Positions 15,592 to 33,697 of a stretch of 44,450 bases of DNA are shown in pieces. The translations under genes and the position numbers were made by a program. The stretch covers positions 1-44,450 of the forward strand of contig DUMX01000083.1 of assembly GCA_012839665.1 (NCBI GenBank), in the 5' to 3' direction. The notes beneath the pieces are model-generated. The model ran no database searches. It had not been told where the DNA came from and saw only the letters and a program-made list of their open reading frames with translations. Source of the stretch: Gelria sp. GTDB taxonomy: Bacteria > Bacillota > Syntrophomonadia > Syntrophomonadales > Syntrophomonadaceae. The number at the start of each line of letters is the position of its first letter. Within the stretch, counting starts at the first letter, position 1.

Positions 15592-15604
15592 GAGGCGTTT
15601 ACTT

Positions 15605-18600: not shown

Positions 18601-19285
18601 CCGAGAAGTGCTGGAAGAAAAACAGCAGGCCGGGGAGCAGGAATTAAAAGATATTCAGCAGGAAATTGGGGCCGCTGAAAAGACCCTGCAAGATAGCCAG
18701 GAAACTGCCCGGCAGATAGAGGCGCAAATGCAAAGAATTGAGCAACAAGAAGAAGAACTGGGACGCTGGCAGGTCTTGCATAATTTGATAGGTTCTGCTG
18801 ATGGCAAGAAATATCGTAATTTTGCCCAGGGTTTAAGTTTTGACATTATGATAAAACATGCTAATCGTCAGCTACAGAAGATGAGTGACCGCTACGTACT
18901 GCGGCGTAATCCGGGCCAGGTTTTAGAGTTAGATGTCATCGATAATTACCAGGCGGGAGAAATCCGCTCTACCACTAACCTTTCCGGAGGCGAGAGTTTT
19001 ATAGTCAGTCTGGCTCTGGCCCTGGGATTATCTGCTATGGCCAGCCGCAAAGTCAGCGTGGATTCACTATTTTTAGACGAAGGCTTCGGCGCTTTGGATG
19101 AAGATACTCTCGATATTGCGCTGAACACCCTGGCCGGGTTGCAGCAGGAAGGCAAACTGATTGGGCTTATTTCCCATGTCCCCGCCCTTAAAGAGCGCAT
19201 CAGCACCCAGATCCAGGTCATACCCCAATCCGGAGGCCGCAGCCTCCTACAGGGCCCTGGTTGTCGTTTGGTGGTTTCTTATTAA
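15605..19285 (+). CDS. sbcC: Exonuclease SbcCD, ATPase subunit C (Rad50/SMC-like)
   Basis: AGGAGG RBS. Walker A GPTGAGKTT. Very long coiled coil with a central zinc hook CPLCG (about nt 17400). Signature LSGGESF. Walker B LFLDEGFG. Confidence 0.9.
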   Translation: MRIHEVRFQNLNSLVGEWKIDFSDPAYLADGIFAITGPTGAGKTTILDAICLALYGRTPRLERVNRSSNEIMSRHTGSCYAEISFETREGSFRCHWSQQRAYKKPGGELQTHKHEISDALDGKVLENKIRDVALKVEEITGMNFNRFTRSILLAQGGFAAFLQASPDERAPILEQITGTEIYSEISIQVHERQREEKNCLEILQAEIAGMKVLSAEEEEDLREGIDHKTSQEKKQQEELGFLRKALAWLDQIAQLEEEIGSLQMQWGQHRERQEAFQEDRLRLQRARQAMILDAPYAQLTHLRELQTGEVEELEGIREELPRQREAITAAVKAWEKARQELNGLKILRKAEGEKAKQVRAMDLLIKQQGEQIEGIQALVSDGETECAALQDEIVDGKKKLKEMAGAWDNIEKYLRENNRDATLVTNLTGITRAFNQLKELVVALQKKDSEWQQAAVALKSLLDAGEQIAGTYDSNKEVQEHHYKVLQAEEDKLKEVLQGHEIDWWQDELDEYKERKDKLQELKQIWDRIIQIEEDLKGGRESVQRLEEEQKQLAREIEQGEEKERYLAEKIEGLETRVVLLSRIRDLEAERAQLEDGKACPLCGATEHPYARGNVPQMDESQEELNQTRKQHRELSKDLEKRKIQKGKLDKELEHARATVEQAEQQLGKEIKLRVYSMDELGLDLSEVKTRDEVGLQVNQSQENIKYYSQQLKTIAALQKNVGALALQYEESRTAFIQSDKDRQQSVWQQKQAQLEDERLEKEYQTLKDEVENLQAIALQEVSEYGITHLPLEKLSAILKILGERKTRWEAQQEEKLHLEKDINTAQSELDKLEIQLQTGKKALESERQKLKRQQEEYEKQREARLNLYGERDPDEEEKRLDEEIKAGENAVEEAREEAEVLKRREEFLVEREKTLVNVTQKRIPELQRMEESFARQLRQTDFKQEEDYLQAKLSNEERQSLSAAEEELKTEGTKLQASLSNSRKNLQREKDKNLTDEPREVLEEKQQAGEQELKDIQQEIGAAEKTLQDSQETARQIEAQMQRIEQQEEELGRWQVLHNLIGSADGKKYRNFAQGLSFDIMIKHANRQLQKMSDRYVLRRNPGQVLELDVIDNYQAGEIRSTTNLSGGESFIVSLALALGLSAMASRKVSVDSLFLDEGFGALDEDTLDIALNTLAGLQQEGKLIGLISHVPALKERISTQIQVIPQSGGRSLLQGPGCRLVVSY

Positions 19286-20793
19286 CCCTGCAAGGTTTTG
19301 ATAATGGTATTAATAGTGTCAATGGTAATACTTCGTTGAGTTTTATTCTGGGGTTGTTTATTTAGCATGAGGCGCATATAGTCCCAAAAGGCAGCATTCA
19401 TATTACTTTCATTTATAGCAAACGTAATTGCCGGGGGCGTGCTTTTTTCAATGATTACGCCTACATCTTCTTTACAATAGATCGAACAACCATATATTTT
19501 GCTGGTCGGAATAAGATGTACGTTATATGTATCAAAGGTTTGCAGGAGCTTAACAATATGTTGAAGATGTTTACTAAATTCCATTGGGGAGTAGGAAGCA
19601 AACATATGGGAGAAATTTATTATAGCCTCCCCGCATTCTATTGCTTGCAAATTAGGAAGAGGGACTATTTCTGTAAAGGCATAGGCCTGCAGGCTATTCT
19701 CAAAGCGTTTCATCCTCTTTTGGTGATAGGACAAAATTTGCTCCCGCCTATCCTTATCCATCCGTGAACATATGCTTTCGGCCACGCTAAATGGCATAGT
19801 AATAGTTGAAAACATATCAGATTTTAAAACCGAGTTACCTTCTTCTTCCTCAAATTCTGTAAGCACAGAAAGATAATCTCCCGGGTGGTTTGGTGTAAAA
19901 ATACGCATCAGTGGCCGGCAGAGAGAAAAATATTCCTGATATTCTTCTGTAAGTGCAACGATGGTGTTTTTATCGGTATAAAAGAAAGTAGCTGCATTTT
20001 TTGCGCCATCACCTACAGAACTTGAAGTAACTACGGCTGTATCGAGGGCAATAAAAAATGTATGCTTAAAAATTCCGTCACGGCTTTTAGGGTAGTAGTA
20101 GGGTTCTATGGCGCCAGTCATATAGAGCGGTAGCCACTTTTCAATTCCCAAAAACATTTCACCAAGATTGCGGTTTATTACATGAATAATTTTTATTTTA
20201 TTTCCATTCTGTATTACCTTGAATAATAGCTGGGCCCACCTTGCAGTAAATTCAGGGTCTTCCGTCAGCCATTCAATGCTTTCCTCGCTAAATAGATACA
20301 GAGTTGTAGGTGTTTTTCTCTTTATTACCAGAGATAAAAATTTTATAACTGCCTTTCGCTTACCCTCTATTCCATAAAAGATTGTCTCCTCTGATTCCCC
20401 ATTTTCAATAATATCCAGACTATCGGTGTCCAGCTCATTTGGCACCCTTTTAAATTGGAAATTGGTCAGGCCATCCATAAAGCTGGCAACCGAATTGGTT
20501 GGTATTATTTCTTCTAAAAACCAAACCTCTATTAATGCGATTAATTCAGTATCATTATCAGGCAAATCCTTTTGCAGAAATTCCCTTAATGCCGCTTTTT
20601 GATATTCAGTAGTACAATTGCGGACGAAATATTCTGACATTGCCCTTATGTAAGTTTGATTTTTGGAGGGAGTTCGGTCGCCTCTTCTTAAACGGCTGAC
20701 CAGGGACGGATCGATGGCACTGGCACGGGCCAGTACACTATTAGTTGTACTCGTTATATTCATTATAAAATCAAGCTTTTCACTGAAAGACAT
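19282..20793 (-). CDS. Helix-turn-helix (XRE-like) domain protein with a large uncharacterised C-terminal domain
   Basis: The N-terminus MSFSEKLDFIMNITSTTNSVLARASAIDPSLVSRLRRGDRTP resembles an HTH. I prefer the ATG at 20793 (GGTGGTG RBS) over the TTG at 20808. Its stop overlaps the sbcC stop by 4 nt (convergent). Confidence 0.65.
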   Translation of the reverse strand: MSFSEKLDFIMNITSTTNSVLARASAIDPSLVSRLRRGDRTPSKNQTYIRAMSEYFVRNCTTEYQKAALREFLQKDLPDNDTELIALIEVWFLEEIIPTNSVASFMDGLTNFQFKRVPNELDTDSLDIIENGESEETIFYGIEGKRKAVIKFLSLVIKRKTPTTLYLFSEESIEWLTEDPEFTARWAQLLFKVIQNGNKIKIIHVINRNLGEMFLGIEKWLPLYMTGAIEPYYYPKSRDGIFKHTFFIALDTAVVTSSSVGDGAKNAATFFYTDKNTIVALTEEYQEYFSLCRPLMRIFTPNHPGDYLSVLTEFEEEEGNSVLKSDMFSTITMPFSVAESICSRMDKDRREQILSYHQKRMKRFENSLQAYAFTEIVPLPNLQAIECGEAIINFSHMFASYSPMEFSKHLQHIVKLLQTFDTYNVHLIPTSKIYGCSIYCKEDVGVIIEKSTPPAITFAINESNMNAAFWDYMRLMLNKQPQNKTQRSITIDTINTIIKTLQG

Positions 20794-20850
20794 TTGGTTC
20801 ACCACCAATTAGCAGTATATATTCTTATATTACATTATTCGGGGTTGGTT

Positions 20851-20884: not shown

Positions 20885-20947
20885 GAATGGCGAAAACCTA
20901 TTTCAAACAAAATAGCGGTAAATATAATGTAAACAGAGGTGGTAGCG

Positions 20948-21256
20948 ATGCCATATAATGTCAGGCTTAGAGCCGGATTTTTTAAAACTCAGCCATACGT
21001 GCTGGATATTGTGGGAAAGCAAATTGTTCTCTACCCAAAACATGCCACGGATATGGAGAAATTTGTAATAGATGAACATGATTTGAACACCATAAGCATA
21101 ATTAAAGGTATTAAAAATTTGACGGAGTTCGAAATCAAAACCCAAACCGGTATATACATAGGAATTATTGATAGCAGGACAAATCTCGAGGAACTGTTAT
21201 GTGATCTCACCCGGGAATTTGGTAGAAAGTTCATTATTAATGGGAGGGATAGCTAG
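20948..21256 (+). CDS. Hypothetical protein (102 aa)
   Basis: AGAGGTGG RBS lies 5 nt before the ATG at 20948. I recognise no motif. It is the first ORF of the same-strand cluster. Confidence 0.45.
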   Translation: MPYNVRLRAGFFKTQPYVLDIVGKQIVLYPKHATDMEKFVIDEHDLNTISIIKGIKNLTEFEIKTQTGIYIGIIDSRTNLEELLCDLTREFGRKFIINGRDS

Positions 21257-21305
21257 GAAAATATTTTTGAAAGGTTCTTTATTAAATGTTAGGAGTTGAT
21301 TGCTA

Positions 21306-21872
21306 ATGAACACTGTTGTCATAATTACCATCGTCTCGGTTTTATTGGTAGCCCTGGTAATATTTCTGATTGCCACTTATAACAATCTGGTACAGCTACG
21401 GCAAAGGCTACGTAACGCCTGGTCGCAGGTGGATGTCCAGTTGAAACGCCGTTATGATTTAATCCCCAATCTGGTTAATGCCATTCAGGGCTATGCTGCT
21501 CATGAAAGGGCAATCTTTGAAGAAGTTGCCCGGGTACGCAGTCAGGCTATGACGGCTACATCAGTAGCTGAACAATCGCAGGCAGAAAATTTGTTAACCG
21601 GGGCCTTACGTTCCCTGTTTGCGGTGGCAGAAAATTACCCTGAACTGAAGGCCAATACAAACTTTTTACAGTTGCAGGAAGAACTAACCAATACCGAAAG
21701 TAAGATTGCTTATTCCCGCCAGTTTTACAACGATACTGTCCAAAAATTTAATACTCGGATTGAACTGTTTCCTACCAATTTAGTAGCCGGGATGCTAGGA
21801 TTCGGTCCGGCTGACTATTTCACTCTGCAAGGTGAACCGGAAGCCCGCCAGGCAGTACAGGTGAAGTTTTAA
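21306..21872 (+). CDS. lemA: LemA family protein
   Basis: N-terminal TM helix, then YNNLVQLRQRLRNAWSQVDVQLKRRYDLIPNLV...AENYPELKAN...YSRQFYND, which is typical of LemA. Confidence 0.88.
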   Translation: MNTVVIITIVSVLLVALVIFLIATYNNLVQLRQRLRNAWSQVDVQLKRRYDLIPNLVNAIQGYAAHERAIFEEVARVRSQAMTATSVAEQSQAENLLTGALRSLFAVAENYPELKANTNFLQLQEELTNTESKIAYSRQFYNDTVQKFNTRIELFPTNLVAGMLGFGPADYFTLQGEPEARQAVQVKF

Positions 21873-21915
21873 TTAGAAAATAACGGGAGGTTAATTTTGG
21901 GGAGGGATTTTTAAA

Positions 21916-23808
21916 GTGTTGGCAAGAGGCAATAAGCTGGGATTAATTATACTTTATACGCTATTTATAACTTTTTTGTTTGGTGCCTTTTATCCGGCAA
22001 TAGCTCAGGCCCGTAGTTTAGAAATGGATAAACTGGCGATTGATGCTGAGCTGCTTCCGGATGGTTCTATGCAGGTGACCGAGCATATAACCGTTACTTT
22101 TCATGGTTCTTATAATGGATATTTTGTTTCCATTCCCCAGGATAATGCCCCGATTACGGACATCCTGGTATCTGAAAACGGGAGCCCCTACCAGTTTAAC
22201 CCCGAACAGAGTTATGGGCCTCCGGGTACCTATCTGGTTAAACAGGAAGGCAACATACTTACCATTGACTGGAGTATTAATGCCAGTGATGAACAACGTA
22301 CCTTTGACGTTAGTTACCGGGTTAATAACTTAATTAAAATGCACACTGATGTAGCCGAATTTTATCGCAAGTTTGTCTCTTCTGATAACGCTCAAAAGAT
22401 TGGGCAGGTAATAGTGCGACTGCAATTACCAGCCGGGGCAGAAAATTTGCAGCAGGGTACTGATATCCGCATCTGGGGACATGGTCCCCTCCATGGTGAA
22501 GTTCAATTTACCGGACCCCGGGAGGTTACCTGGCAGATTGAGGATATGCCCAGCAATAAATTCCTGGAGGGGCGTATGGTTTTGCCCCTGCAGCTTTTCC
22601 CTGCTGCTCCCGCTGAACTTTCTACCGGGCAGGCGGGCCTGCCAATTATTATGGATGAAGAGGGACGCTGGGCTGAAGGTGCTAATCGCCGGCGCCAGGA
22701 GGCTCGTATGCAGGTTGGCATAGCCATTTTAATTCCTCTTTTGACCTTATTTGCTTTATTCCTTATGTGGCGTAAATACGGTAAAGAGTATCAAGCTGAG
22801 TTTCAGGGCGATTACTACCGGGAACTTCCGGCTGATTATTCCCCGGCTGAACTATCAGTTTTATGGAACTGGGGGCAGGTAAAAACGCATGATATTACAG
22901 CCACCTTGCTGGATTTGGCCCGACGACAATATATTACTATTGAGCAGGAACTATATGAGAAAAAACGCTTATTGGGAACCAAAGAAGTTACCACCTATTT
23001 ACTCAGCCTACGAAAAGAAAAATACGATGCCGAGCAGGAGAAGTTGCGCCCCCATGAAATTGATTTAATAAAATTGATCTTCTCTAAAATTAGCAAAGGT
23101 AAACCTTATTTGTATCTATATGAAATTGAGGAGTACTCCAAAGAACATAGCCGGGGCTTCTATAATTTCTGGTTAGGGTGGAAAAATGACTTGGCGGCAA
23201 TTGGAGAAACTAACGAGTGGTTTCTAGGAACTCCAAGCCGTATTCGCTGGATTGCTGCTGGAGTAGCGCTGGTATTCTTTTTAACTGGCCTGATATTAAT
23301 CAGAGCTGAAGTCGTCCTTCCTGGAGTTAGTATATTTCTCTGCAGTTTCTTCATTGCTATCGTACCGGCTAAATTTAAACGGCGATCTCAACCGGCCCAT
23401 GAGGATTTGCGTAAATGGGAAGCTTTTAAACTTTTCTTACTGCATTTTTCTAATATGGAAAGACACGAAATCCCCAGTTTAGTTATATGGGAACACTATC
23501 TGGTTTACGCTGTTACTTTGGGGGTAGCCAAAGAGGTAATGAAGCAACTGGAAATAGTCTTTCCTAATTTGCAGGAGGACGATTATCGTTTTGGTCAGTA
23601 CTGGTGGTATAGCCAAACCGGTTTTGCTATGGCAGGCTTGAGTGACAATTTTGATAAGATTTCCGAGAGTATCCAGCATTCAATTCAGGTAGCAGAGAAA
23701 ACTGTTAAGGCAGCTGAAAGCAAGTCATCCTCGGGCTCCGGCGGCGGGGGAGGCTTCTCCGGCGGAGGCGGCGGTGGTTCCGGTGGCGGCAGTTACGGTG
23801 GCCGTTAG
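21916..23808 (+). CDS. DUF2207-type membrane protein with a Gly-rich C-terminal tail
   Basis: Signal/TM at the N-terminus, an extracytoplasmic beta-rich domain and internal TM helices. The tail is SSSGSGGGGGFSGGGGGGSGGGSYGGR. The position directly after lemA is the usual LemA-DUF2207 pairing. Confidence 0.8.
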   Translation: MLARGNKLGLIILYTLFITFLFGAFYPAIAQARSLEMDKLAIDAELLPDGSMQVTEHITVTFHGSYNGYFVSIPQDNAPITDILVSENGSPYQFNPEQSYGPPGTYLVKQEGNILTIDWSINASDEQRTFDVSYRVNNLIKMHTDVAEFYRKFVSSDNAQKIGQVIVRLQLPAGAENLQQGTDIRIWGHGPLHGEVQFTGPREVTWQIEDMPSNKFLEGRMVLPLQLFPAAPAELSTGQAGLPIIMDEEGRWAEGANRRRQEARMQVGIAILIPLLTLFALFLMWRKYGKEYQAEFQGDYYRELPADYSPAELSVLWNWGQVKTHDITATLLDLARRQYITIEQELYEKKRLLGTKEVTTYLLSLRKEKYDAEQEKLRPHEIDLIKLIFSKISKGKPYLYLYEIEEYSKEHSRGFYNFWLGWKNDLAAIGETNEWFLGTPSRIRWIAAGVALVFFLTGLILIRAEVVLPGVSIFLCSFFIAIVPAKFKRRSQPAHEDLRKWEAFKLFLLHFSNMERHEIPSLVIWEHYLVYAVTLGVAKEVMKQLEIVFPNLQEDDYRFGQYWWYSQTGFAMAGLSDNFDKISESIQHSIQVAEKTVKAAESKSSSGSGGGGGFSGGGGGGSGGGSYGGR

Positions 23809-23826
23809 AGACTTTAAGGAGTGATG

Positions 23827-24402
23827 ATGTTCATGAATGCTATTGCACCGGCTGTACAGCCAAGATGGAAAGTTGCGCTAAGTATGATGATTAATCCGGG
23901 CGAAGTGGTCAAAAACCAGATGTCACAAGTACCCTGGCCGTTTTCGCTGCTAGTATCCGGTTTATCATTTACGTTATTTTTTCTACAAACCGGTCTGGAT
24001 ATGCTGCGTTCCGGGCAAATCAGTACTTCTACTGTAGTCCTTATCACTATGCTAGGTCTGGTCTACGGCACGGTTGGAATTGCTCTAATTGCAGCTATGG
24101 CCTGGGCCTTAGCTCAGGGTTCAGAGCGATCCTATACTATAGATTGGGCTATTTCCGCGTTTGCCCTGGGTTATTCAGCTACCCTGGTTTATGCCTTACT
24201 GGGAATTATTTTTTCTCTGGCGTTGGGATGGAAAACGGCGGTAGCTTTTGGGGTGACCGGTGTTTTATGGGCGCTTCGGCCTACGTTATTTACAGTACGG
24301 CAGATGTCCGGTGATCGCATGGCCTTTAGTATTGCTTTGGCCACGCTCTGTGGTGCTATTCTGCTTTTTGGCTGGGCCTTATTAGGACGCTTTGGGTTTT
24401 AA
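23827..24402 (+). CDS. Multipass membrane protein (about 5 TM; Yip1-like, tentative)
   Basis: AAGGAG at 23816-23821. Possible starts are 23824, 23827 and 23833. Hydrophobic segments run throughout. Confidence 0.6.
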   Translation: MFMNAIAPAVQPRWKVALSMMINPGEVVKNQMSQVPWPFSLLVSGLSFTLFFLQTGLDMLRSGQISTSTVVLITMLGLVYGTVGIALIAAMAWALAQGSERSYTIDWAISAFALGYSATLVYALLGIIFSLALGWKTAVAFGVTGVLWALRPTLFTVRQMSGDRMAFSIALATLCGAILLFGWALLGRFGF

Positions 24403-24407
24403 CAGAT

Positions 24408-24480
24408 ACGGGGAATAGACGCGGACTCGCTACGCTCGCGCGGATTAAGAAAGGATTTACGCAGATTTTAATAAGAATTC
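24408..24480 (+). repeat. Copy C of the dispersed intergenic repeat family
   Basis: ACGGGGAATAGACGC (24408-24422) is followed by GGATTAAGAAAGGATTTACGCAGATTTTAATAAGAATTC. It fills the only gap over 50 nt inside the gene cluster. Confidence 0.5.
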
Positions 24481-24503
24481 AATTATGGGGAGCTGGTGGG
24501 ATT

Positions 24504-24998
24504 ATGGAAATGAATTTGGGTTATGCAGGTAGTGCCGGCCAGAGAACGGTAAAACTCGGGCCCGTATATTTATGCTTCCTGGTATTTGGCATACTAATTC
24601 CTTTTAGTAAGCCCGAATTTAGCTGGATGACCTTATTATCATCAATATTTCTCGCTTTGGTAATGGGGTTACTGGCGGTAAATATGCTTATTATGCTATT
24701 AAATAACGGTAATCCAGTTTTACGAGCCGAAAGCGGAGGTCAGTTTGCCCGGGAAGCCGTTAGTACAGGGATGCTGTTTATGATTCCCTTTACCGTCCTG
24801 GCCGTTTTAGCCCTGGTAGTGTTAGGTTGGGATGCAGTAATGCCATTTGCTTCGACTGCTATAATGACTGCTGCTGCTACGGCTGGTACGGAAGCAATGA
24901 AAAAGGGAGCCCAGGGTATGAAAAATATGATGATACCAACGGTAATAGCTATGCTGGTTTCTACCGGCTGGATGATGCTGGTGGGATTGTTACCATAA
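24504..24998 (+). CDS. Small membrane protein (about 4 TM), uncharacterised
   Basis: Four hydrophobic stretches. It ends 9-18 nt before the start of the giant ORF. An alternative ATG is at 24510. Confidence 0.55.
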   Translation: MEMNLGYAGSAGQRTVKLGPVYLCFLVFGILIPFSKPEFSWMTLLSSIFLALVMGLLAVNMLIMLLNNGNPVLRAESGGQFAREAVSTGMLFMIPFTVLAVLALVVLGWDAVMPFASTAIMTAAATAGTEAMKKGAQGMKNMMIPTVIAMLVSTGWMMLVGLLP

Positions 24999-25007
24999 GG
25001 GGCGGAG

Positions 25008-28000
25008 GTGAAAAGCTTGTCAATATTATATTTGGCTAGAAATAAGAAACGAATCCGAAAAAACCTTGGGGTAGTATTTGCCTTATCTTTTATGTTTATG
25101 ATTCTGATATCTTCCTGGGGACCAGGAACTGCTCTGGCAGGAAGTGTCGGGGATGTAGTCACCCAGGTATCCAAGGCCAATACTGGCTCACCGGAATTTA
25201 AGTTTGGGCAGGAATCGGCTACCGGCTATGGCTTTGCCATTCATGCCGGCATGGGTAACTACGGTGACGGCGGCGGGTGTATGCTCAGTGTGCTAGGACC
25301 GGCACAGCCGGATGAAATACAAATCATGATCGATTATGTTGACGGGATATCGCAGGTTACTTACATCCGGACCACCCAGATGAAAGGCTGCGAAGTAAGA
25401 GAATATACCACGGATGACGGGGTAGGTATCGGGGTGGTCCTGCCGGATTATTTTATTACTGTGGAAATGCTGGATACCGGCTTAAACCAGGGTGCTAATA
25501 TGGCAGCTGCCAAGAGTATTGCCCAGCAGACTTTAGACGGGCTGGAACGGGCCGGGCTATTAAGTCAGGCTGCTCCAGACATAGAATCAGGAAAACCGGC
25601 AGCAGATCCTGCACCGAAAGATTCCGCGCCTGCAACTGCAAGCCCGGCTGGAGTCGGTTCTGTTGGAAATATACCTGGACCATCCAACACCACGGAAGCG
25701 GTGACGGGTGTTGTCGTTCCCGGATTGATCGCGACCGCCTTAGGGGCTTTAGGCGGCTTAGGCGGTGGCGGATTCATACCTCCGGCAGGCGGAACACCCA
25801 TATATCCCACTGGCGGAGGGCCATCACCACTTACCGGAGGATCTTATCCGGGAGCCGGAAATGCTCGTCCTGGTGCAATCCAGGGAGTCAACCAATTAGG
25901 TGGCAGACGGCGTGGTGAGGAAATCTATGTCGATACGGGTGCCATAGGGCAAAAAGCAATTGATATAAGAGAAGTTGAACAACCGGCAGATCATGGCATG
26001 ATTATTGATACTGCAGATATGTTTGAAACTCCTATAGCTGTTCAGCATGAGCCCGGTGTCATAATTGACACCGCAGATGAAGCGGGCATATTTGTACAGC
26101 CCGAGCCGGAAATTTATGTCGATACGGTTGATATGCATGAGCAAGCTATCGATATCAGGGAACCGGGGGGAGAAGCGGGTATCCACATCGATACCACGGA
26201 TATGTTCGAAGAAAGTCCCGTACCGGGAGCAATCGATGAAAAGAGAATTTTCATTGAGACGGAGGATGAGGCAGCCCTGTTTACGAAATCTGGATCGGAT
26301 CTGGAGATAGAAGCGGAGCCAGTGAAGACTCAGGCGTTCAGTGCCAGAGAAGGGGAAGCAGGAGGAGCACATTTTGCCACGGCGGAAAACAGCGAAGGGG
26401 CTCCAGCTGCGGCACAATCTGAACATCTGTATACAGACGCTGGAGATTCAGAAGTTCCTCTTGACACCAGTTCGCTGGAAGACAGCACGGGGGCGGAAAC
26501 GGTCCCCGGATCTGAAGAAGCAGCTACGGCCGCGGGAGCAGAAGGACAAAGTGCAGAACAGACTACTGTCGCCGATGTTGATAAGATTTATGACCAGAAC
26601 GGGTTTGATCCGGAAGGTTACAATCGAGAAGGCTTCGATAAAGAAGGATTTGATCGGCAAGGCTTTGATCGGCAAGGCTTTGATAAAGACGGATTCGATA
26701 GAGCCGGATTTAATGCTGAAGGCTTTGATAAAGAAGGCTTCAATAAGGCTGGATTCGATAAAGCGGGCTTCAACCGCGAAGGATTTGACCAGGCAGGTTT
26801 TGACCGGGAAGGATTCGATAGAGCCGGATTTAATGCTGAAGGCTTTGACAAAGAAGGCTTTAACAAGGCTGGATTCGATAAAGCGGGCTTCAACCGCGAA
26901 GGCTTTGACCGGGCGGGTTTTGACCGGGAAGGATTCGATAAAGCCGGATTTAATGCTGAAGGCTTTGACAAAGAAGGCTTTAACAAGGCTGGATTCGATA
27001 AAGCGGGATTCAATCGTGAAGGCTTTGACAAATCAGGTTTTGACCGGGAAGGATTCGATAAAGCCGGATTCAATGCTGAAGGATTTGACAAAGAAGGCTT
27101 CAATAAGGCCGGATTTGACCAAGAGGGATTCAATCGTGAAGGCTTTGACCAGGCAGGTTTTGATCGAGATGGGCTCGATAGAGCCGGATTCAATGCTGAA
27201 GGATTTGACAAAGAAGGCTTTAATAAGGCTGGATTCGATAAAGCGGGCTTCAACCGCGAAGGATTTGACAAGACAGGTTTTGATAAAGAGGGCTTTGATA
27301 AATCAGGATTTGACCGGGAAGGATTCGATAAAGCTGGATTCAATGCCGAAGGCTTCGACAGAGAAGGTTTCAATAAAGCTGGCTTTGATAAAGAAGGTTA
27401 TGGACGCAATGGTTTCGGCTCGGAAGGCTTTGACCGAGAAGGCTATGATGTAAACGGCTATGACCGCAAGGGATTCAACCGCAGCGGTTTTGATGCCAAA
27501 GGGTATGATAAACAAGGTTATGACAAAGAAGGGTTCAACAAGGATGGATGGGACCGGGAAGGTTATGATCACAAGGGGTTTGACGAGAACGGATGGGATC
27601 GTGAAGGCTACGATAAGAATGGTTTCGATAAAGAAGGATATGACCGTGAGGGATATAACCGGGAAGGCCAGTCAAAAGAAGGGTATGACGCAGACGGTTA
27701 TGACAAAAAAGGCTTTAATGAGCATGGCTATGACCGTGACGGCTATGACCGGGAAGGATTTGATTTCGAAGGCTATAGCCGGTCCGGTTACGATCCCTGG
27801 GGTTACAACCGCCAGGGTTACGATAAGGACGGATATCACTGGAGCGGTTATAACGCCGATGGATACAACCGGGCAGGAATGCACTGGACTGATAACCCCT
27901 ACGAAGAAGGTAGTATATGGAATGTAGACACTTACAATCCCTTTGATGGAAGGGTAGTCGATTTAGGTGGACGGAGAGAAGCCTGGGAGCCGACCAAACC

Positions 28001-31000
28001 GCCGCTGGGAGAACCATATCACCGGACGGTGGAAAAATACGGGGCCAAACCCTGGACTGATGAGATACCGCAGTCAACACCTGAAAAACCAACGATTCCT
28101 TTAACAGAAGATGCCGGAGTCATTGGTCCGGAAGATTCCATGAATACCCTGAAAAATCATGGGATAGATCAAGATGCTCCTACCGCACCGGAAGGGCAGA
28201 CTGGAACCGGATTGTCCATACCCGAAGAAGACATTCCCGATGCTGGGAATGTCCCACCGGATACAATTCCGGACGTACCACCGGTTTCCGGGCCTCAACA
28301 TGGGGATACCATTACTTTGCCTGGAAAAGATGGCCGGGATTATGAGCTGGAATACAACAGCCAAACTGGAGAATGGGAAAACCTGCTTACCGGAGGCAGA
28401 ATTCGTAATGAGGATCTGGGATCATATGTAGAAGACTTTAATAGATGGCAGGATGACGTTGCCGAAGACTTGAGCCGTTCTGCCCGCGATATTGAAAAGA
28501 TGGCAGCTCGTCAGGATGCCACCAGCCAGGCCATTGACAAGAATCTGGCCGATTGGAAGCGTTTGGAGCAAATGCAGAAGATGGCTGATAAATATAACAT
28601 CGGAGAACCAGGAGGTTCCGGAGATGTAGACAAAGCAATCCAGAATCTAAAAGATGATATGCTGGCCGGGAAAGAGCTTGACCAGGATAGATTGGAGCAG
28701 TTAAACAAGATTATCGACAACCGTATACAGGGAACAACAGCAGCGGATACCGGACAACGCTGGGAAGAGGATTGGTTCAAAAATCTAGGATGGGCTCTGG
28801 AAGCTAATGCAGCAACGGCCAAAGAAGTAGTAACTGGCGAGAAAGCTGACGGCAGTACATCCTGGCTGGGTATGGGTGCCCGTATCATGATTACTACAGC
28901 TACTGGAGGCACTGCCGGGGTAGTTATGGATGGGGGCTTAACGGTAGCAGAAGCCATGTATCGTATCAAGGACTCAATCGACAAGGGAGAATCAGATTTC
29001 CGGGCGGTATCCAAAGCGATTGGCTTGACGGTTCTGGGTGAAGAAGCAGGTTGGCTGGCAGGCGAAGCCGGCGGCAAGTTAATGGGAGAGATGATGGAAA
29101 GATACCCGGCGTTTACCAATAAGGCAGCCGACCTGATTGAAACTGCTATATTAAAAGGCAGTGCTAAAAATCAGATGTGGAGCAAGTCATTAGGTTTAAT
29201 TAGCAAAGAATCAGCAGAGGAAACCCTTGATCAAATAAATAAACGGTTGGTAGATATAGGCAGCGGTGAAGCGGCAGAAAACATCATAAAGAAAGCCAGA
29301 GGAGGCTATGGATTGTCGGTTGCTGACTCTTTTGATGATGTATCCAAAGCCGGAAAGGCATTTACCGGCAGCGGAGATGATATTCTCAAAGGAGGTAAAT
29401 CAGCTTCCGAGGGATGGTCTGATATAGCTGCAGATGGAGGCAAATCCGTCTCCGACATGGGAGACGATATGGGCAAAGGAGCAAGCAGGGCAGCTTCCGG
29501 TAGTGGAGATGATATAGCCAGAGGAACAGGCAAAGCAGCCTCCGGAAGCAGTGATGATGTAGCCAAAGGAGCAGGTAAAGTTGCCTCCAGTAGTGATGAC
29601 CTGGCCAAAGGTGGGAGTAAAGCAGGTAGTCGTGCTGGGGATGGACCTGATGGACCGGTGCGCACTGGTGATGGCGGCGGAGATGGACCAGGAACTCCGG
29701 GAGGGCCTCCATCTCGAGGTGGTGGCGGTGATGCAGGCAGCATGCATCCAGAAGCTATAAATAATAGGACTCTTAATACTAATGCCAGGACTCCTGAAGA
29801 GGTCTTGTCTGATCCGACTTCGGTAGCCAGAGCAGAACAATCCTTACAAAAAAATATCAAAGATTTTGATAAACTGCCACCGACCAGACAACAGGACCTG
29901 ATCAGGGAGCAGGCTATTTATGATGAATACAAAATGCAGGCTCAGGAAAGAACCTATAATGTGGCTGATAAGGTTGAGCGCCGAGAACCGCTAACGGTTG
30001 AAGATATTATGGAAATGAAAGCCGACCCGGCTTCTATGAGAACGCTCAAGGACCTTGAAAATGTTGATGGTATAGGAGCGGAACTAGGGCCGACCAGATC
30101 CCGCCAGGTACAGTCTGAATTTAACCATGTACTGGATACAGAGATACATCAGCCTTCTTATCGGACGGTGGAGGAGCACCTGCATAGCAGATATCCGGGT
30201 ACTGACCCTGAAGGTATACGCTGCAGAACAGTACGTACACCAGGCACTGAGTGTAATGCTTTCGATATAAATACGGATAATGATGTTATCGCTGAACGGT
30301 TGGTACATGGCCCCAATGGACCTGAATGGGTGGAGATTCCCAAGTCTGAATGGGAAGATGTTTATTATAAAGCCTTTGCTGATAAATCCGGCTTTAGTGT
30401 TGATGAAGCAACCAGACGGTTCCCGGACAGCGATTGGGCCAAAATGGATGACGCAACGCGCTTCCGAGAATGGGCAGGACGACATGAAGAATCTGCTATG
30501 GATCAATTTGATCTTGAAGCTGCCCGTGATTTCAGTGACCAGCGCACCTGGCGTATACAGGACGGGGATCTACCGGGCAGACCTATGATAGAGGCTACAC
30601 CGGAGGAGATTGCGCGCGGGGCGGACATAGTGATGATCGATGGCAGGCCAATGAGACCTTCGAGCGGATACGAATTGGTCCAAAGACGACAGGGTAATCT
30701 CCTGGACTCAGAACAACTGTCTATAATGGAATCATACAAAGTCGATGAATACTGGACTGCAGGAAGCACTCCAGCGGAGGTAATGAGGAATCAGACCGAG
30801 GCCATGGAACAATTGCGTAAAACTGCAAATGTTGCTCAGACCGTAGAAAGCAGTTATAGGGACATGGGTTACAGAATAGAGCAGATGCCGAATAACATGC
30901 AGGAGGCTATCAAAGTTATCAATAACAATAGCCTGTCACCGGCTGCCAGGGCAGCCCGTCTGCGGGAACTCGGCTATGAAACCCCCGGGGACTTTTTAAA

Positions 31001-31049
31001 TAAGGTAACCAGCCGCATAGGTGCAATTAGAGAAGCCAAAATGAAGTAA
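25008..31049 (+). CDS. Giant (about 2010 aa) multi-repeat protein with an N-terminal signal/anchor
   Basis: Single uninterrupted ORF. The likely start is the TTG at 25017, 8 nt after GGAGG (25004-25008). The N-terminal basic segment and hydrophobic helix end in ALAGS. It contains several unrelated internal repeat classes and a non-repetitive ~430-aa C-terminal region. I recognise no family. Confidence 0.8.
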   Translation: MKSLSILYLARNKKRIRKNLGVVFALSFMFMILISSWGPGTALAGSVGDVVTQVSKANTGSPEFKFGQESATGYGFAIHAGMGNYGDGGGCMLSVLGPAQPDEIQIMIDYVDGISQVTYIRTTQMKGCEVREYTTDDGVGIGVVLPDYFITVEMLDTGLNQGANMAAAKSIAQQTLDGLERAGLLSQAAPDIESGKPAADPAPKDSAPATASPAGVGSVGNIPGPSNTTEAVTGVVVPGLIATALGALGGLGGGGFIPPAGGTPIYPTGGGPSPLTGGSYPGAGNARPGAIQGVNQLGGRRRGEEIYVDTGAIGQKAIDIREVEQPADHGMIIDTADMFETPIAVQHEPGVIIDTADEAGIFVQPEPEIYVDTVDMHEQAIDIREPGGEAGIHIDTTDMFEESPVPGAIDEKRIFIETEDEAALFTKSGSDLEIEAEPVKTQAFSAREGEAGGAHFATAENSEGAPAAAQSEHLYTDAGDSEVPLDTSSLEDSTGAETVPGSEEAATAAGAEGQSAEQTTVADVDKIYDQNGFDPEGYNREGFDKEGFDRQGFDRQGFDKDGFDRAGFNAEGFDKEGFNKAGFDKAGFNREGFDQAGFDREGFDRAGFNAEGFDKEGFNKAGFDKAGFNREGFDRAGFDREGFDKAGFNAEGFDKEGFNKAGFDKAGFNREGFDKSGFDREGFDKAGFNAEGFDKEGFNKAGFDQEGFNREGFDQAGFDRDGLDRAGFNAEGFDKEGFNKAGFDKAGFNREGFDKTGFDKEGFDKSGFDREGFDKAGFNAEGFDREGFNKAGFDKEGYGRNGFGSEGFDREGYDVNGYDRKGFNRSGFDAKGYDKQGYDKEGFNKDGWDREGYDHKGFDENGWDREGYDKNGFDKEGYDREGYNREGQSKEGYDADGYDKKGFNEHGYDRDGYDREGFDFEGYSRSGYDPWGYNRQGYDKDGYHWSGYNADGYNRAGMHWTDNPYEEGSIWNVDTYNPFDGRVVDLGGRREAWEPTKPPLGEPYHRTVEKYGAKPWTDEIPQSTPEKPTIPLTEDAGVIGPEDSMNTLKNHGIDQDAPTAPEGQTGTGLSIPEEDIPDAGNVPPDTIPDVPPVSGPQHGDTITLPGKDGRDYELEYNSQTGEWENLLTGGRIRNEDLGSYVEDFNRWQDDVAEDLSRSARDIEKMAARQDATSQAIDKNLADWKRLEQMQKMADKYNIGEPGGSGDVDKAIQNLKDDMLAGKELDQDRLEQLNKIIDNRIQGTTAADTGQRWEEDWFKNLGWALEANAATAKEVVTGEKADGSTSWLGMGARIMITTATGGTAGVVMDGGLTVAEAMYRIKDSIDKGESDFRAVSKAIGLTVLGEEAGWLAGEAGGKLMGEMMERYPAFTNKAADLIETAILKGSAKNQMWSKSLGLISKESAEETLDQINKRLVDIGSGEAAENIIKKARGGYGLSVADSFDDVSKAGKAFTGSGDDILKGGKSASEGWSDIAADGGKSVSDMGDDMGKGASRAASGSGDDIARGTGKAASGSSDDVAKGAGKVASSSDDLAKGGSKAGSRAGDGPDGPVRTGDGGGDGPGTPGGPPSRGGGGDAGSMHPEAINNRTLNTNARTPEEVLSDPTSVARAEQSLQKNIKDFDKLPPTRQQDLIREQAIYDEYKMQAQERTYNVADKVERREPLTVEDIMEMKADPASMRTLKDLENVDGIGAELGPTRSRQVQSEFNHVLDTEIHQPSYRTVEEHLHSRYPGTDPEGIRCRTVRTPGTECNAFDINTDNDVIAERLVHGPNGPEWVEIPKSEWEDVYYKAFADKSGFSVDEATRRFPDSDWAKMDDATRFREWAGRHEESAMDQFDLEAARDFSDQRTWRIQDGDLPGRPMIEATPEEIARGADIVMIDGRPMRPSSGYELVQRRQGNLLDSEQLSIMESYKVDEYWTAGSTPAEVMRNQTEAMEQLRKTANVAQTVESSYRDMGYRIEQMPNNMQEAIKVINNNSLSPAARAARLRELGYETPGDFLNKVTSRIGAIREAKMK
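26601..27890 (+). repeat. About 86 consecutive in-frame pentapeptide units G-[FYW]-[DN]-x-x
   Basis: Translation reads GFDPEGYNREGFDKEGFDRQGFD...GYDKDGYHWSGYNADGYNRAGMHW with an unbroken 15-nt period. It is F-type up to about 27420 and Y/W-type afterwards. Confidence 0.9.
26691..27290 (+). repeat. Five 120-bp higher-order tandem repeats (8 pentads each) within the pentad array
   Basis: Units start at 26691, 26811, 26931, 27051 and 27171, each beginning GGATTCGATA or GGGCTCGATA. Neighbouring units look roughly 90% identical by eye. A degenerate sixth unit follows, with a 30-bp insertion. Confidence 0.85.
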
Positions 31050-31068
31050 ACGGTAAGGAGGTATTTAA

Positions 31069-32187
31069 ATGGAAATGAATCAGGGTATGGTGGGAGCTGA
31101 AGTATTTAAACTGGAACCGGGCGATATTAATCATTTATTCAGACGCTCGGGATTGAACGGGAACAGTCTTTCATCCTTCAGTTATAATGCTGAACAGGCT
31201 GCCACCAGCAGTTCTTCAGAAGTATTTAAAAAACTATCTGAGAGCCCCCAGTTTAGACAGATTGCCCGGCAGTTGTTGCAACCGGACTTAAAAATTGAGT
31301 TCAACAGCGGCGGGGCGGGTACGGCTGATGACAAATATTACGCATTGCTTTCAGCTGATGATAAAATCGTTTTGGCACAGTTGGCAAACTCTGATGGTGA
31401 TATACTTTTGCTGCTTTTCCCTGACGGGGAGTCATTTCTTAGGTGGTGGACCGATGTTTATGCTTCCACAGGTATGGGCGGTTACCAGACTGTATTTCCT
31501 AATATCATGGAAACTGAAGTCCTGGTCTGCGCGCTGCATTGTGTAGATATTTATCGCCGCTCTTATATGGAAAGCATGCTGGATTATCGCAGCGGGGTTG
31601 ATTCATCATTATCAATCCAGGATTTTGTACAGCTCTTAAAACGCTCCCTGGCCAGCAGAGACAAAAGATGGTTACTGCCGACTATGTTTGAAATTACCCC
31701 CGGTTTAAAAAACAGCAGTATGGCATTAACTCCTGAACATATGAAACAGATTGGGGAGTTAGGCTTTATTACCAGCGCTGCTAATGATGTTACCCTGGCA
31801 GAACGAAGCCGGATAATGGGAACTGAATTTATAACCAGCTGGATGGGAGGGTTTGGTTGGCAGGCAACGGCATTAATTAATGGACAGGAACGCTCCTTAT
31901 CCCGAGTTTTTTTGGCTCCGACTGCTTTTACCAATCACTTAATTTCCTTTGAAGCAGCTGAGGCAGGAAAAACCCGCTTTCGCCATCAGGCGGCCAACCG
32001 GCAGGAATTATTGGAAATACTATCTGGTTGGATGAAGGCCTTATGTGGGGCTGCTGGTATAACCGGCTCCGGACCGAGTACAGAACCTACACCGGCTTCA
32101 CCTCAGGCGGCGCGTTTCTGCAGCAACTGCGGAGCTGAAATTCGTCCCGGCAAGCGCTTTTGTACCGCCTGCGGTAATTCCGTATAA
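31069..32187 (+). CDS. Cytoplasmic hypothetical protein with a C-terminal zinc ribbon
   Basis: AAGGAGG RBS. No TM segment. The C-terminus is FCSNCGAEIRPGKRFCTACGNSV (CxxC-N10-CxxC). Confidence 0.7.
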   Translation: MEMNQGMVGAEVFKLEPGDINHLFRRSGLNGNSLSSFSYNAEQAATSSSSEVFKKLSESPQFRQIARQLLQPDLKIEFNSGGAGTADDKYYALLSADDKIVLAQLANSDGDILLLLFPDGESFLRWWTDVYASTGMGGYQTVFPNIMETEVLVCALHCVDIYRRSYMESMLDYRSGVDSSLSIQDFVQLLKRSLASRDKRWLLPTMFEITPGLKNSSMALTPEHMKQIGELGFITSAANDVTLAERSRIMGTEFITSWMGGFGWQATALINGQERSLSRVFLAPTAFTNHLISFEAAEAGKTRFRHQAANRQELLEILSGWMKALCGAAGITGSGPSTEPTPASPQAARFCSNCGAEIRPGKRFCTACGNSV

Positions 32188-32222
32188 CAGAGGGCTTTAA
32201 GTAGGGAAAAGGAGGAATTAGC

Positions 32223-33269
32223 TTGAGTCAGCTTATACAGTGCCCCCGCTGCGGGGGAGAGTTAATCCCCGGGGATCGGTTCTGTGGGGAGTGCGGATTT
32301 GATACAGGGCAACAGGTACAACAGGTAGCCAGTCCGGAACCGGTTAGACCGGCAGCCGGGACGGGAGAAGCCATTTCCCCACCGGTATCACCACCGGTGA
32401 CTCATCCTGAGCCGGTTTTCCCTCAGCAGTCCGTTACTCGGTTTGATCCAGCGCAGGGAAATCGGGGTCTGGGAGCAGCACCATCCCGTAGTGGAGGTAC
32501 CGGACCGATTATTATAGTAGTAGGATTAATTTTAGTTCTCCTGGCAGGAGGGGGATTATTCTGGTGGTTAAGCAAAGGTGAGGAACCCCCACAGGTTGCG
32601 GCCCCGCAAACTAATCAACCCCAGCAGTCTTCCCCCACACCGGCTGGATCATCTACCCAGCCTTCGGCTCAGCTCGACCTGACCCGGGCAGCTACCTACT
32701 TGTCCGAATCAGGCTTAAAATGCAGCTTTTTTGTGAATTATCCCGATGGGTTTTCCGGTACCGTGGAACGGGTTAGTGCCCGGGTAGTTCCAACCGAGGC
32801 AGTACGAGTTAGCGAGGCGGAAATAGTACAGGATAGTGGAGAGGTCATTGGTTATGGTTTCCACTATATTGAACGTCCGGACGGAATTTACCTGATTTAT
32901 GACTCTACTCCCCAGGAGTGTTCGCCGGTCCTGAAGAATAATTTGGCTGTCGGACAAAGCTGGAATTATGTCACTGAATTCGGCCAGATTGTATGGACTG
33001 TACTGGACATGGGGGTACGTTTAGATCTGGGCTTTGCCACTCTGGATAATTGCCTGTTGGTGGAAGAGGATAATCAAGCCGTAGGTTTCAAGACGATTAT
33101 TTATTATGCTCCTGGTATGGGGCAGGTTGTGGAAAGGACCTCTCAAGATGGTGCGGATTTATCGAAGTTAACTGCCTTTTCTAAGATAGATGCAGCCCAG
33201 GCGGCCGAAACCGTGAAAAAATGGTCTCCTAATTACGCATCCATTCAGGATGACAGGACCCAGAGCTGA
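32223..33269 (+). CDS. Zinc ribbon, Pro-rich linker, single TM and extracytoplasmic domain protein
   Basis: GGAGG RBS before the TTG at 32223. The N-terminus is QCPRCGGELIPGDRFCGECG. The TM is GPIIIVVGLILVLLAGGGLFWWL, followed by a P/Q-rich spacer and a ~200-aa domain. Confidence 0.7.
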   Translation: MSQLIQCPRCGGELIPGDRFCGECGFDTGQQVQQVASPEPVRPAAGTGEAISPPVSPPVTHPEPVFPQQSVTRFDPAQGNRGLGAAPSRSGGTGPIIIVVGLILVLLAGGGLFWWLSKGEEPPQVAAPQTNQPQQSSPTPAGSSTQPSAQLDLTRAATYLSESGLKCSFFVNYPDGFSGTVERVSARVVPTEAVRVSEAEIVQDSGEVIGYGFHYIERPDGIYLIYDSTPQECSPVLKNNLAVGQSWNYVTEFGQIVWTVLDMGVRLDLGFATLDNCLLVEEDNQAVGFKTIIYYAPGMGQVVERTSQDGADLSKLTAFSKIDAAQAAETVKKWSPNYASIQDDRTQS

Positions 33270-33277
33270 AGGGCAGG

Positions 33278-33306
33278 TTGACGGCTGCAGGTATCTGTTA
33301 TAAAAT
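33278..33306 (+). promoter_or_regulatory. Candidate sigma-A promoter for tRNA-Gly
   Basis: TTGACG (33278-33283), 17 nt, TAAAAT (33301-33306). The predicted start is within a few nt of the tRNA 5' end at 33316. Confidence 0.5.
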
Positions 33307-33315
33307 AACGTTGAT

Positions 33316-33390
33316 GCGGGAGTAGCTCAGTGGTAGAGCACCGGCTTCCCAAGCCGGGTGTCGCGGGTTCGACCCCCGTTTCCCGCTCCA
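33316..33390 (+). tRNA. tRNA-Gly (anticodon CCC), with encoded CCA
   Basis: Cloverleaf folded by hand. Acceptor GCGGGAG/TTCCCGC. D arm GCTC-AGTGGTA-GAGC. Anticodon stem CCGGC/GCCGG with loop TTCCCAA. T arm GCGGG-TTCGACC-CCCGT. Discriminator T plus CCA. Total 75 nt. Confidence 0.9.
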
Positions 33391-33521
33391 TTAATTGTAG
33401 GCGTTGCCTACATCTGTGTCCTGTAAAGGGCTCCATTAATTGTGAGCGTAGCTTATAATATTAGCGTCTAATCAAGCCTATTATTATATTAAGACCAATT
33501 TTCAACGGGAGGTTGGAGGAT

Positions 33522-33662: not shown

Positions 33663-33676
33663 ACGGCACCAATAAA

Positions 33677-33697
33677 GGGGGCAGTGCCCCTTTTTTT
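33677..33697 (+). terminator. Short GC hairpin plus T7 tract between scfA and scfB (partial terminator or attenuator)
   Basis: GGGGC (33678-33682), AGT loop, GCCCC (33686-33690), then TTTTTTT (33691-33697). Flanking A/T pairs can extend the stem. Confidence 0.55.

Follow-up and report, generated by a model that had tools for sequence, protein, structure and literature searches.

A conserved envelope-spanning gene cluster of anaerobic Bacillota, built around a giant protein with exchangeable C-terminal domains

EspG proteins are the cytoplasmic chaperones of mycobacterial type VII secretion systems (T7SS), and LemA-DUF2207 pairs are widespread membrane-protein pairs for which we know of no biochemical function anywhere. 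EsaE of the T7SSb is likewise predicted to be EspG-like (PMC12478183), and the sole study of a DUF2207 protein that we found, in S. mutans, reports stress-tolerance and biofilm phenotypes (PMC10457818). Here we analyse a gene cluster that holds both a LemA-DUF2207 pair and a protein modelled with an EspG-type fold, located in a 44,450-nucleotide stretch of Gelria sp. DNA (assembly GCA_012839665.1, contig DUMX01000083.1, positions 1 to 44,450 of the forward strand; hereafter the window). The eight same-strand open reading frames (ORFs) of the cluster, O1 to O8 at 20939-33269 (+), form one conserved, envelope-spanning module, which includes a giant protein of 2013 residues with an exchangeable C-terminal domain. 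An earlier, sequence-only reading of the window had proposed that such a unit was undescribed, and no account of the cluster was found in the searchable literature. We propose that it is a new chaperone-assisted system for the handling or delivery of a polymorphic effector, a reading that we consider plausible though somewhat short of probable. The genes are arranged as follows.

19282..20808 (-): divergent gene, 508 aa, co-conserved with the cluster, putative regulator
20948..21256 (+): O1, small soluble protein (ORF and ribosome-binding site)
21300..21872 (+): O2, LemA (Pfam LemA)
21916..23808 (+): O3, DUF2207 membrane protein with a Gly-rich C-terminal tail (Pfam)
23821..24402 (+): O4, Yip1-like protein with five transmembrane (TM) helices, core (synteny, hydropathy)
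24504..24998 (+): O5, 4-TM protein, core (synteny, hydropathy)
25008..31049 (+): giant, 2013 aa, core (ORF, synteny)
31069..32187 (+): O7, 372 aa, EspG-type fold (model) and C-terminal zinc ribbon (Pfam), core
32223..33269 (+): O8, 348 aa, zinc-ribbon/TM/ectodomain protein (Pfam, hydropathy)

The eight ORFs lie where the sequence-only reading had placed them, with gaps of 43, 43, 12, 101, 9, 19 and 35 nt from O1 to O8, in agreement with the 9-101 nt that it gave. O1 may start with GTG at 20939 (105 aa) or with ATG at 20948 (102 aa), the latter preceded by a GAGGTGG ribosome-binding site. No convincing terminator was seen inside the cluster, again as previously claimed, and the sole strong terminator-like hairpin of the plus strand, at 33674-33694, is located beyond O8. 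The tRNA-Gly named as the right boundary is present as tRNA-Gly(CCC) at 33316-33390. The gap at 24403-24503, described before as repeat-filled, has no notable repeats and no significant tendency to fold (z -1.3), and this description is withdrawn. The numbers of TM helices given earlier agree with our hydropathy scan, on which, rather than on a dedicated predictor, all topologies and TM counts in this work are based.

Conservation of the cluster was determined through a genome scan (one genome per species) anchored on O7, which covers genomes that carry O7. The O7 family comprises 124 clusters at 39-94% identity, and the scan yielded 62 loci, whose stop-to-stop ORFs were searched with the window proteins; loci are cited below by L numbers. 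Counts were taken in the 34 loci with full flanks, i.e. at least 8.5 kb upstream and at least 6 kb downstream.

O4: 34/34 loci
O5: 33/34 loci, always immediately 3' of O4
Giant: 34/34 loci
O7: 34/34 loci, by construction and hence without weight
O8: 31/34 loci
DUF2207: 29/34 loci
LemA: 28/34 loci
X416, a 416-aa polytopic membrane protein: 26/34 loci
ZnR227, a 227-aa zinc-ribbon membrane protein: 25/34 loci
O1: 20/34 loci, directly upstream of O4, a count limited by the upstream flank
Divergent gene: 19/34 loci, in divergent orientation, a count limited by the upstream flank

Most often, the genes are arranged as divergent gene, O1, O4, O5, giant, O7, O8, X416, LemA, DUF2207 and ZnR227. Carriers include Syntrophomonadaceae, Pelotomaculum, Sporotomaculum, Desulfoscipio, Desulfosporosinus, Dehalobacterium, Thermacetogenium, Syntrophaceticus, Sporomusa ovata, Acetobacterium and one metagenome-assembled genome (MAG) of Acidobacteria, and the cluster is also found in Dehalobacter sp. 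DCM and Caldicellulosiruptor. The flanking genes differ from locus to locus (gatCAB, TatA, a DEAD helicase, ABC transporters); SbcC and the radical S-adenosylmethionine (SAM) gene that adjoin the cluster in the window recur beside it only in the two closest relatives, and an M23 gene nearby is otherwise represented by a weak match in L016 only. As the neighbours are unrelated across loci, it is the cluster itself that is conserved and not the chromosomal region. Gene content and order are maintained over the 62 loci. Hence, the view that the genes form one unit holds far beyond close relatives.

The distant versions retain only O4, O5, the giant and O7, and therefore these four constitute the core, usually accompanied by O8 and not including LemA-DUF2207. 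In Caldicellulosiruptor owensensis (L066), homologues of O4 (3e-47), O5 (1e-20) and O7 (3e-34) are present along with a divergent GerE regulator and, behind O4 and O5 and before O7, a short giant, Calow_2190, consisting of signal peptide, ectodomain, conserved motif and TM helix, coiled coil, central domain and a C-terminal domain of the same type as in the window (type A, see below), without LemA-DUF2207. The locus of the Acidobacteria MAG (L062) encodes an O4 fused to an N-terminal zinc ribbon, O5 and O7, followed by a 928-aa giant-like protein that is likewise built of signal peptide, ectodomain and TM helix and has a different, small C-terminal domain, and also lacks LemA-DUF2207. Some genomes contain two full copies of the cluster, namely Sporotomaculum syntrophicum (L005 and L046) and the MAG JBMNGL01 (L017 and L018).

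The window copy is a reduced version that has lost two members found in most relatives. Its closest relative is L042 of Syntrophomonas sp. UBA5432, the O7 of which is 94% identical, and the window aligns continuously to this locus except for L042 11120-11860 (ZnR227) and 12924-14584 (X416). The corresponding loss sites, 32187-32223 and 33269-33316, are clean and intergenic, and no homologue of ZnR227 or X416 was detected anywhere in the window.

The giant contains only two hydrophobic segments as judged from hydropathy, and is organised as follows.

25008..25682 (+): signal peptide, aa 1-45, and ectodomain, aa 46-225 (hydropathy, inspection)
25695..25766 (+): 'PGPxNTT' motif and Gly-zipper TM anchor, aa 230-253 (hydropathy 1.86)
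25905..26567 (+): acidic region with five 'hhh-D/E-T-x-D/E' motifs (net charge about -19 per 100 aa)
26598..27893 (+): about 86 pentapeptide units (x-G-F/Y-D/N-x), in register, DotG/IcmE-like
28263..29261 (+): conserved central domain, aa 1086-1418, ending in INKRLVDIG (alignment)
29262..29762 (+): low-complexity (S/G)GDDxAKG linker (repeat search)
29763..31046 (+): C-terminal domain of type A, aa 1586-2013 (428 aa), exchangeable

The signal peptide reaches its hydropathy peak of 2.04 at aa 18-40 and ends in ...ALA/GS, with a basic n-region and an AxA site recognised by inspection; in relatives, the ectodomain carries extra insertions. The PGPxNTT motif and TM anchor are conserved as far as Acidobacteria and Caldicellulosiruptor, and in Calow_2190 the TM helix is followed by RRR. 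A signal peptide and a single TM helix, with RRR behind it in Calow_2190, place the remainder of the protein in the cytoplasm, so that about 180 residues are predicted outside and about 1750 inside. The acidic motifs are located at aa 306, 351, 369, 392 and 414. In the pentapeptide array, 80 of the 86 unit spacings are exactly five residues, higher-order 120-nt repeats reach 90% identity, and the region matches the Pfam Decapeptide family (8.8e-9), the NCBIfam DotG/IcmE repeat region (3.8e-22) and IcmE in the PDB (3.5e-20). Two ORFs in alternative frames of the array, at 26341-27453 (+2 frame, 370 aa) and 26618-27373 (minus strand, 251 aa), were rejected as genes, being by-products of the periodic repeat. 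The array is missing from Calow_2190 and from the Acidobacteria giant-like protein. The central domain, with 63% mean column identity over 20 sequences including Caldicellulosiruptor, has no relative in Pfam or the PDB, and conservation of the giant stops after its INKRLVDIG end. The following linker includes a 45-nt tandem array at 29460-29595. From the giant to O8 (25000-33000), G+C is 0.45-0.54 compared to about 0.38-0.49 in most of the window, which may reflect a Gly/Asp/Ala-rich composition or foreign origin.

Behind INKRLVDIG, the giants carry one of at least four unrelated types of C-terminal domain, which are exchanged between loci. Among 57 classified loci, type A is found in 39 (including the window), type B in 12, the short type C in five and type D in one. 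The types are interleaved in the O7 tree, where four type B loci have their nearest O7 relative in a type A locus, and the MAG JBMNGL01 carries both an A copy (L017) and a B copy (L018). A relationship of types A and B was considered and rejected upon comparison. Invariant charged residues of an enzyme-like kind are present in the C-terminal domains.

Type A is characterised by the invariant sequences VRTPG-x9-NTDNDV, HEE..MD and RDFSxQRT, and recurs in other large proteins of 125 representative clusters, Calow_2190 among them, either C-terminally or directly behind a signal peptide, the latter for example in proteins from one Deferribacterales and one Bacillota MAG. Ankyrin repeats, in six of 36 proteins, are the only Pfam domains of the other type-A-bearing proteins. 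The AlphaFold2 model of the domain has a mean predicted local distance difference test score (pLDDT) of 76. A nucleotidyltransferase-like G[ST]-x9-DxD motif was considered for type A as well, is supported by no tool and is not claimed here.

Type B is associated with a private partner. All 12 type B loci (L014, L015, L018, L029, L033, L037, L038, L041, L048, L052, L055 and L058), and never a type A locus, encode a soluble, Trp- and Cys-rich 274-aa protein, the gene of which separates giant and O7; in L014, the type B domain is found at 8375-9184 and the partner gene at 9148-9969. The partner has no relative in PDB sequence and profile searches, and the notion of a diverged O7 was dismissed (hhalign probability 0.1). 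The type B domain itself looks like an ExoY-type cyclase. ExoY-like nucleotidyl cyclase toxins are the sole PDB entries with similarity to its profile (E 0.027 and 0.33), the alignment covering the catalytic Lys region, and the Lys, Lys, Asp-x-Asp and His positions do not vary, including in a member of only 27% identity. These residues may correspond to the cyclase active site. When metagenomes were scanned for other delivery contexts of type B, only near-identical copies were recovered. In the window, O7 directly follows the type A giant; O7 is common to all types without co-variation. O8 (54.6% identity within types versus 54.1% between types) and the other conserved genes do not co-vary with type either, and were discarded as type-specific partners.

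The protein encoded behind the giant, O7, is confidently modelled with an EspG-type, chaperone-like fold and is predicted to be cytoplasmic. Its AlphaFold2 model (115-sequence alignment) reaches a pLDDT of 89 and a predicted template modelling score (pTM) of 0.82, and the best 16 Foldseek matches in the PDB are all EspG1, EspG3 or EspG5 (E 6e-8 to 1e-5, probability 1.0, template modelling score up to 0.57 on the target), with the next match at E 0.016. By sequence, O7 matches neither EspG nor DUF5081 in Pfam or the PDB. The family is 40-94% identical across taxa, has 22 invariant residues and ends in a four-Cys zinc ribbon (Zn_Ribbon_1, 4e-8) behind a variable linker. A diverged second O7 paralogue is located directly upstream of O7 in L049 (8925-9884) and L052 (8378-9319), whose giants have the most unusual C-termini of all loci.

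Among the small membrane proteins, O4 is the most conserved after LemA, with a mean column identity of 76% and many invariant Trp, Gly and Pro residues, and its hydropathy fits about five TM helices. Pfam Yip1 (PF04893) is matched by three of 28 O4 orthologues, up to 2.6e-7, and one member is named 'Yip1 domain-containing' in one source; the O4 of the window shows no match to Yip1 at E<=0.1. O5 was recovered in Caldicellulosiruptor and Acidobacteria. O8 combines an N-terminal zinc ribbon (3e-4, four invariant Cys), a TM helix at aa 88-118 and a conserved ectodomain of about 200 residues. PDB sequence and profile searches with the giant, O4, O7 and O8 returned only IcmE repeats and zinc ribbons. 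Similarly, Pfam, NCBIfam, PHROGs and PADLOC identified nothing in the cluster beyond LemA, DUF2207, zinc ribbons and DotG repeats. The earlier statement that six of the ORFs match nothing nameable is nonetheless too strong, considering the Yip1-like O4, the EspG-like fold of O7, and the DotG/IcmE-type repeats and exchangeable C-terminus of the giant.

The sequence-only reading had further suggested one functional module for membrane-proximal scaffolding, stress sensing or surface assembly. The co-conserved unit stands, and a pure scaffold leaves the exchangeable, enzyme-like ends unexplained. In such a scaffold or surface-assembly complex, the giant would serve as a membrane-proximal spacer, assembled by the other proteins, with the C-termini as binding modules. 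The long regular repeats, which resemble the DotG region between membrane anchor and channel domain, are compatible with this idea, as are the several ectodomain proteins, the relation of LemA to MamQ and the strong conservation of type A without a partner gene. However, a scaffold accounts neither for unrelated exchangeable C-termini behind a sharp boundary motif nor for the type-B-specific gene, the enzyme-like charged residues and a partner with a chaperone fold, and the repeat array is dispensable, being absent from Calow_2190 and the Acidobacteria protein. We consider this alternative improbable. The exchangeable C-terminus, the EspG-like fold and the DotG-type repeats rather argue for a polymorphic effector than for a passive scaffold.

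For a system that handles or delivers such an effector, we envisage the following mechanism. The small ectodomain of the giant would be exposed outside, and its C-terminal part of about 1750 residues would reside in the cytoplasm as a long tether (acidic motifs and pentapeptides), a 'pre-effector' domain and the exchangeable effector domain. O7 would act as EspG and EsaE do for type VII substrates, binding the giant and keeping it soluble and competent. In conjunction, the conserved TM anchor of the giant would dock on O4 and O5, and these two proteins together with O8 would release, translocate or present the effector domain, with the LemA-DUF2207 set supporting the membrane step. As no ATPase is encoded, the cluster does not reveal an energy source or a host export machine. 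In other proteins, type A occurs directly behind signal peptides, which speaks for a final location of the domain outside the cytoplasm.

Several observations weigh against this proposal. ATPases and Walker A motifs are absent from all cluster proteins, and WXG100, LXG, Rhs and other known trafficking domains were not found with Pfam; consequently, there is no evident export route for the predicted cytoplasmic domain, the topology of which derives from hydropathy only. The likeness of O7 to EspG is at the level of the fold only (template modelling score 0.36-0.57, 7-11% identity), the link of type B to ExoY is marginal (E 0.027) and without a Pfam match, and neither a structural neighbour in the PDB or BFVD nor a recognisable toxin fold was found for the type A model. 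Moreover, types A and C are without a dedicated partner or immunity gene, diversity is low with type A in 39 of 57 loci, and the evolutionary rate of type A is about as low as that of the remaining protein.

Part of these data would also fit an effector that stays within the cell and is triggered from the envelope, for defence or abortive infection or for stress signalling, which we regard as somewhat unlikely and as the main rival explanation. Here, the ectodomains of the giant, O8, DUF2207 and X416 would sense envelope damage or phage attack, and the signal would run down the cytoplasmic tether to activate the C-terminal enzyme inside the cell, e.g. as a nucleotide cyclase in type B, with O7 as an inhibitor or holder, resembling the long-tail logic of Zorya ZorA. 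The predicted cytoplasmic position of the C-terminal part and the lack of an export ATPase are in agreement with this scenario, and defence systems typically show such a moderate exchange of effectors, most types of which lack an immunity gene. The cluster encodes many membrane proteins that bear cytoplasmic zinc ribbons, a feature shared with envelope-stress operons of Firmicutes (PMC11237479), and the stress-tolerance phenotypes of the DUF2207 study (PMC10457818) point in the same direction, as do the type I restriction-modification (R-M) system that the window cluster adjoins and a weak match of the Acidobacteria giant-like protein to the ZorA tail (E 0.0055). That match is the only one to PADLOC-DB 2.0 among seven further members and relatives from other loci, and the nine window proteins have none, so that PADLOC gives no significant match overall. 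Further points count against this rival: no defence island surrounds the cluster in other genomes, the placement of type A directly after signal peptides in other proteins implies that the domain is able to function outside the cytoplasm, secretion chaperones are the other known bearers of the EspG fold, and the gene that accompanies type B resembles an immunity gene. The absence of the cluster from viral contigs is neutral in this respect; a phage origin was rejected, as there are no relatives in viral contigs.

How does the cluster compare to established delivery systems? As in the T7SS (EspG/PE-PPE, EsaE/EsaD), a gene for a protein modelled with a chaperone-like fold directly follows a large effector-like protein with a variable C-terminus, small membrane proteins are encoded nearby, and the private type B gene resembles a toxin-immunity pairing. 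In contrast to the T7SS, the giant is itself membrane-anchored through a signal peptide and TM helix, and O7 bears a zinc ribbon. No FtsK/SpoIIIE-type ATPase of the EccC/EssC kind is encoded by the window ORFs or by the called genes of L063, L065 and L066, a search limited to these loci within each genome, and WXG100, LXG, PE/PPE, EssB and EsaA gave no Pfam or NCBIfam match in the cluster. With polymorphic toxins (CdiA, Rhs, LXG, MafB), the giant shares a long N-terminal part with repeats, a pre-toxin-like region, a fixed motif and unrelated C-termini that are swapped between lineages, with a putatively cognate downstream gene for type B. Unlike these toxins, it has few C-terminal types, one of which dominates, no orphan cassettes, a C-terminus predicted in the cytoplasm and no immunity gene for type A or C; VENN, PT-HINT, RHS, FHA and other trafficking or pre-toxin domains were not detected by Pfam in the giant or in the 36 other type-A-bearing proteins.

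The likeness to DotG/IcmE of the Legionella Dot/Icm type IVB secretion system (T4BSS) concerns the penta-/decapeptide array behind the membrane anchor. However, only the repeats align (78 bits versus a cut-off of 750), the giant has no VirB10-like C-terminal domain, the cluster has no other type IV secretion genes, and the array is missing in distant giants. Finally, type B contains a stretch reminiscent of the class II cyclase toxins ExoY, CyaA and EF (GMP..DQK...V...RP....K.K(S/T)) along with its invariant Asp-x-Asp and His, whereas its hosts are environmental anaerobes, and type B is absent from the window. By the features tested, the cluster falls outside the T7SS, the T4BSS, the known polymorphic-toxin families and the known defence systems. 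Its membrane apparatus is without a described counterpart, and there is a realistic chance of a categorically new delivery system. More specifically, the core may be an undescribed delivery or release machine of anaerobic Bacillota that operates without its own ATPase and exports or hands over polymorphic effectors, using a chaperone logic like that of type VII secretion with a different membrane apparatus and possibly LemA-DUF2207 as a membrane remodeller; we judge this more detailed proposal possible but doubtful.

LemA and DUF2207 constitute a frequently linked accessory set, in other genomes together with X416 and ZnR227. Both identifications made earlier from the sequence pass the Pfam cut-offs: LemA matches PF04011 at E 4e-61 (205.6 bits versus a cut-off of 26.2), and O3 matches DUF2207 (PF09972) at E 6e-29 (101.8 bits, cut-off 24.4) and DUF2207_C (PF20990) at E 5e-49 (167.8 bits, cut-off 33), making O2 and O3 bona fide family members as in the S. 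mutans SMU.243 pair. LemA consists of an N-terminal TM helix (aa 1-33, hydropathy) and a helical domain, and also matches the MamQ model at 3.7e-29, well below the cut-off of that model; MamQ is a magnetosome-membrane biogenesis factor. The DUF2207 protein has four hydrophobic stretches, the last of double length.

DUF2207 is paired with LemA in every linked locus, and the position of the pair varies. It follows X416 in most loci and directly follows O8 or O7 in several, is inserted between O1 and O4 in the window, is inverted and upstream in L002 and L010, and flanks the cassette on both sides in L065; in L042, which begins inside DUF2207, this gene directly precedes O4. Thus, of the earlier claim that LemA-DUF2207 belongs to the module, the linkage in about 28 of 34 loci is upheld and membership of the core is not. 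One may go further and assume two side-by-side modules, in which LemA-DUF2207 (with ZnR227) is independent of the giant cassette, with O1 and the divergent gene standing apart as well. Such pairs occur widely without this cassette, and the cassette in turn occurs without them in Caldicellulosiruptor, the Acidobacteria locus, L032, L052, L056, L057 and L061, loci without the pair including several of Syntrophomonas; in addition, LemA is far more conserved (about 80% identity) than its neighbours. Yet the linkage is maintained through at least four relative positions or orientations, a classic sign of selection for linkage, and both the duplicated pair of L065 and the pair of the window, embedded between O1 and O4 with gaps of 12-43 nt, speak against independence, which we deem very improbable. 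Unlike LemA-DUF2207 pairs elsewhere, the pair here forms part of, or is joined to, a conserved cassette of much greater size.

O1 has no family match in Pfam, NCBIfam, PHROGs or PADLOC. The divergent 508-aa gene, placed earlier at the left boundary as a helix-turn-helix (HTH) regulator, is indeed found there, and its HTH has no Pfam match and is an impression from the N-terminal sequence; the protein is also without a match in the PDB. Its position is taken by GerE-type regulators in L065 and L066, and we predict that it is likely the regulator of the cluster.

In the window, the cluster is preceded by the R-M system and SbcCD and followed by housekeeping genes, and no secretion ATPase is encoded in this stretch. 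A MerR-family regulator and a 766-aa VIT-VWA protein are encoded at 314-3172, a complete type I R-M system (HsdM, HsdS, HsdR) followed by a YgjP-like metallopeptidase at 5207-12541, and a 476-aa ORF without a Pfam match at 12726-14156. The SbcD-SbcC pair at 14290-19285 is located immediately upstream, the SbcC stop overlapping the end of the divergent gene by 4 nt. On the right, a small Cys-rich ORF (...GGINCRECATSCQSACKTSCTVGNQIC...) at 33513-33662 (+), the terminator-like hairpin and a radical SAM/SPASM enzyme at 33731-35107 (+) follow the tRNA. This pair looks like a SCIFF peptide with its maturase, and it represents the true right-hand neighbour of the cluster. Further downstream, two short minus-strand ORFs at 40997-41395 and 41678-42067 each encode a single immunoglobulin-like Big_5 domain and may be fragments of one disrupted gene.

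In conclusion, we here describe a conserved module that, if our reading is correct, would represent a new means by which Gram-positive anaerobes handle or deliver variable effectors without a recognised secretion ATPase. Its hosts include syntrophs and acetogens that are dominant in anaerobic digesters, and isolates that carry the cluster are available among them and beyond: Sporomusa ovata DSM 2662, Pelotomaculum propionicicum, Sporotomaculum syntrophicum, Dehalobacter sp. DCM and Caldicellulosiruptor owensensis. The EspG chaperone fold would then extend beyond the classical type VII systems, and type A would be a new mobile effector domain present in about 125 protein clusters. Likewise, the LemA-DUF2207 pair would gain its first functional context, and LemA-DUF2207 and bacterial Yip1-like proteins would gain a concrete, testable set of partners.

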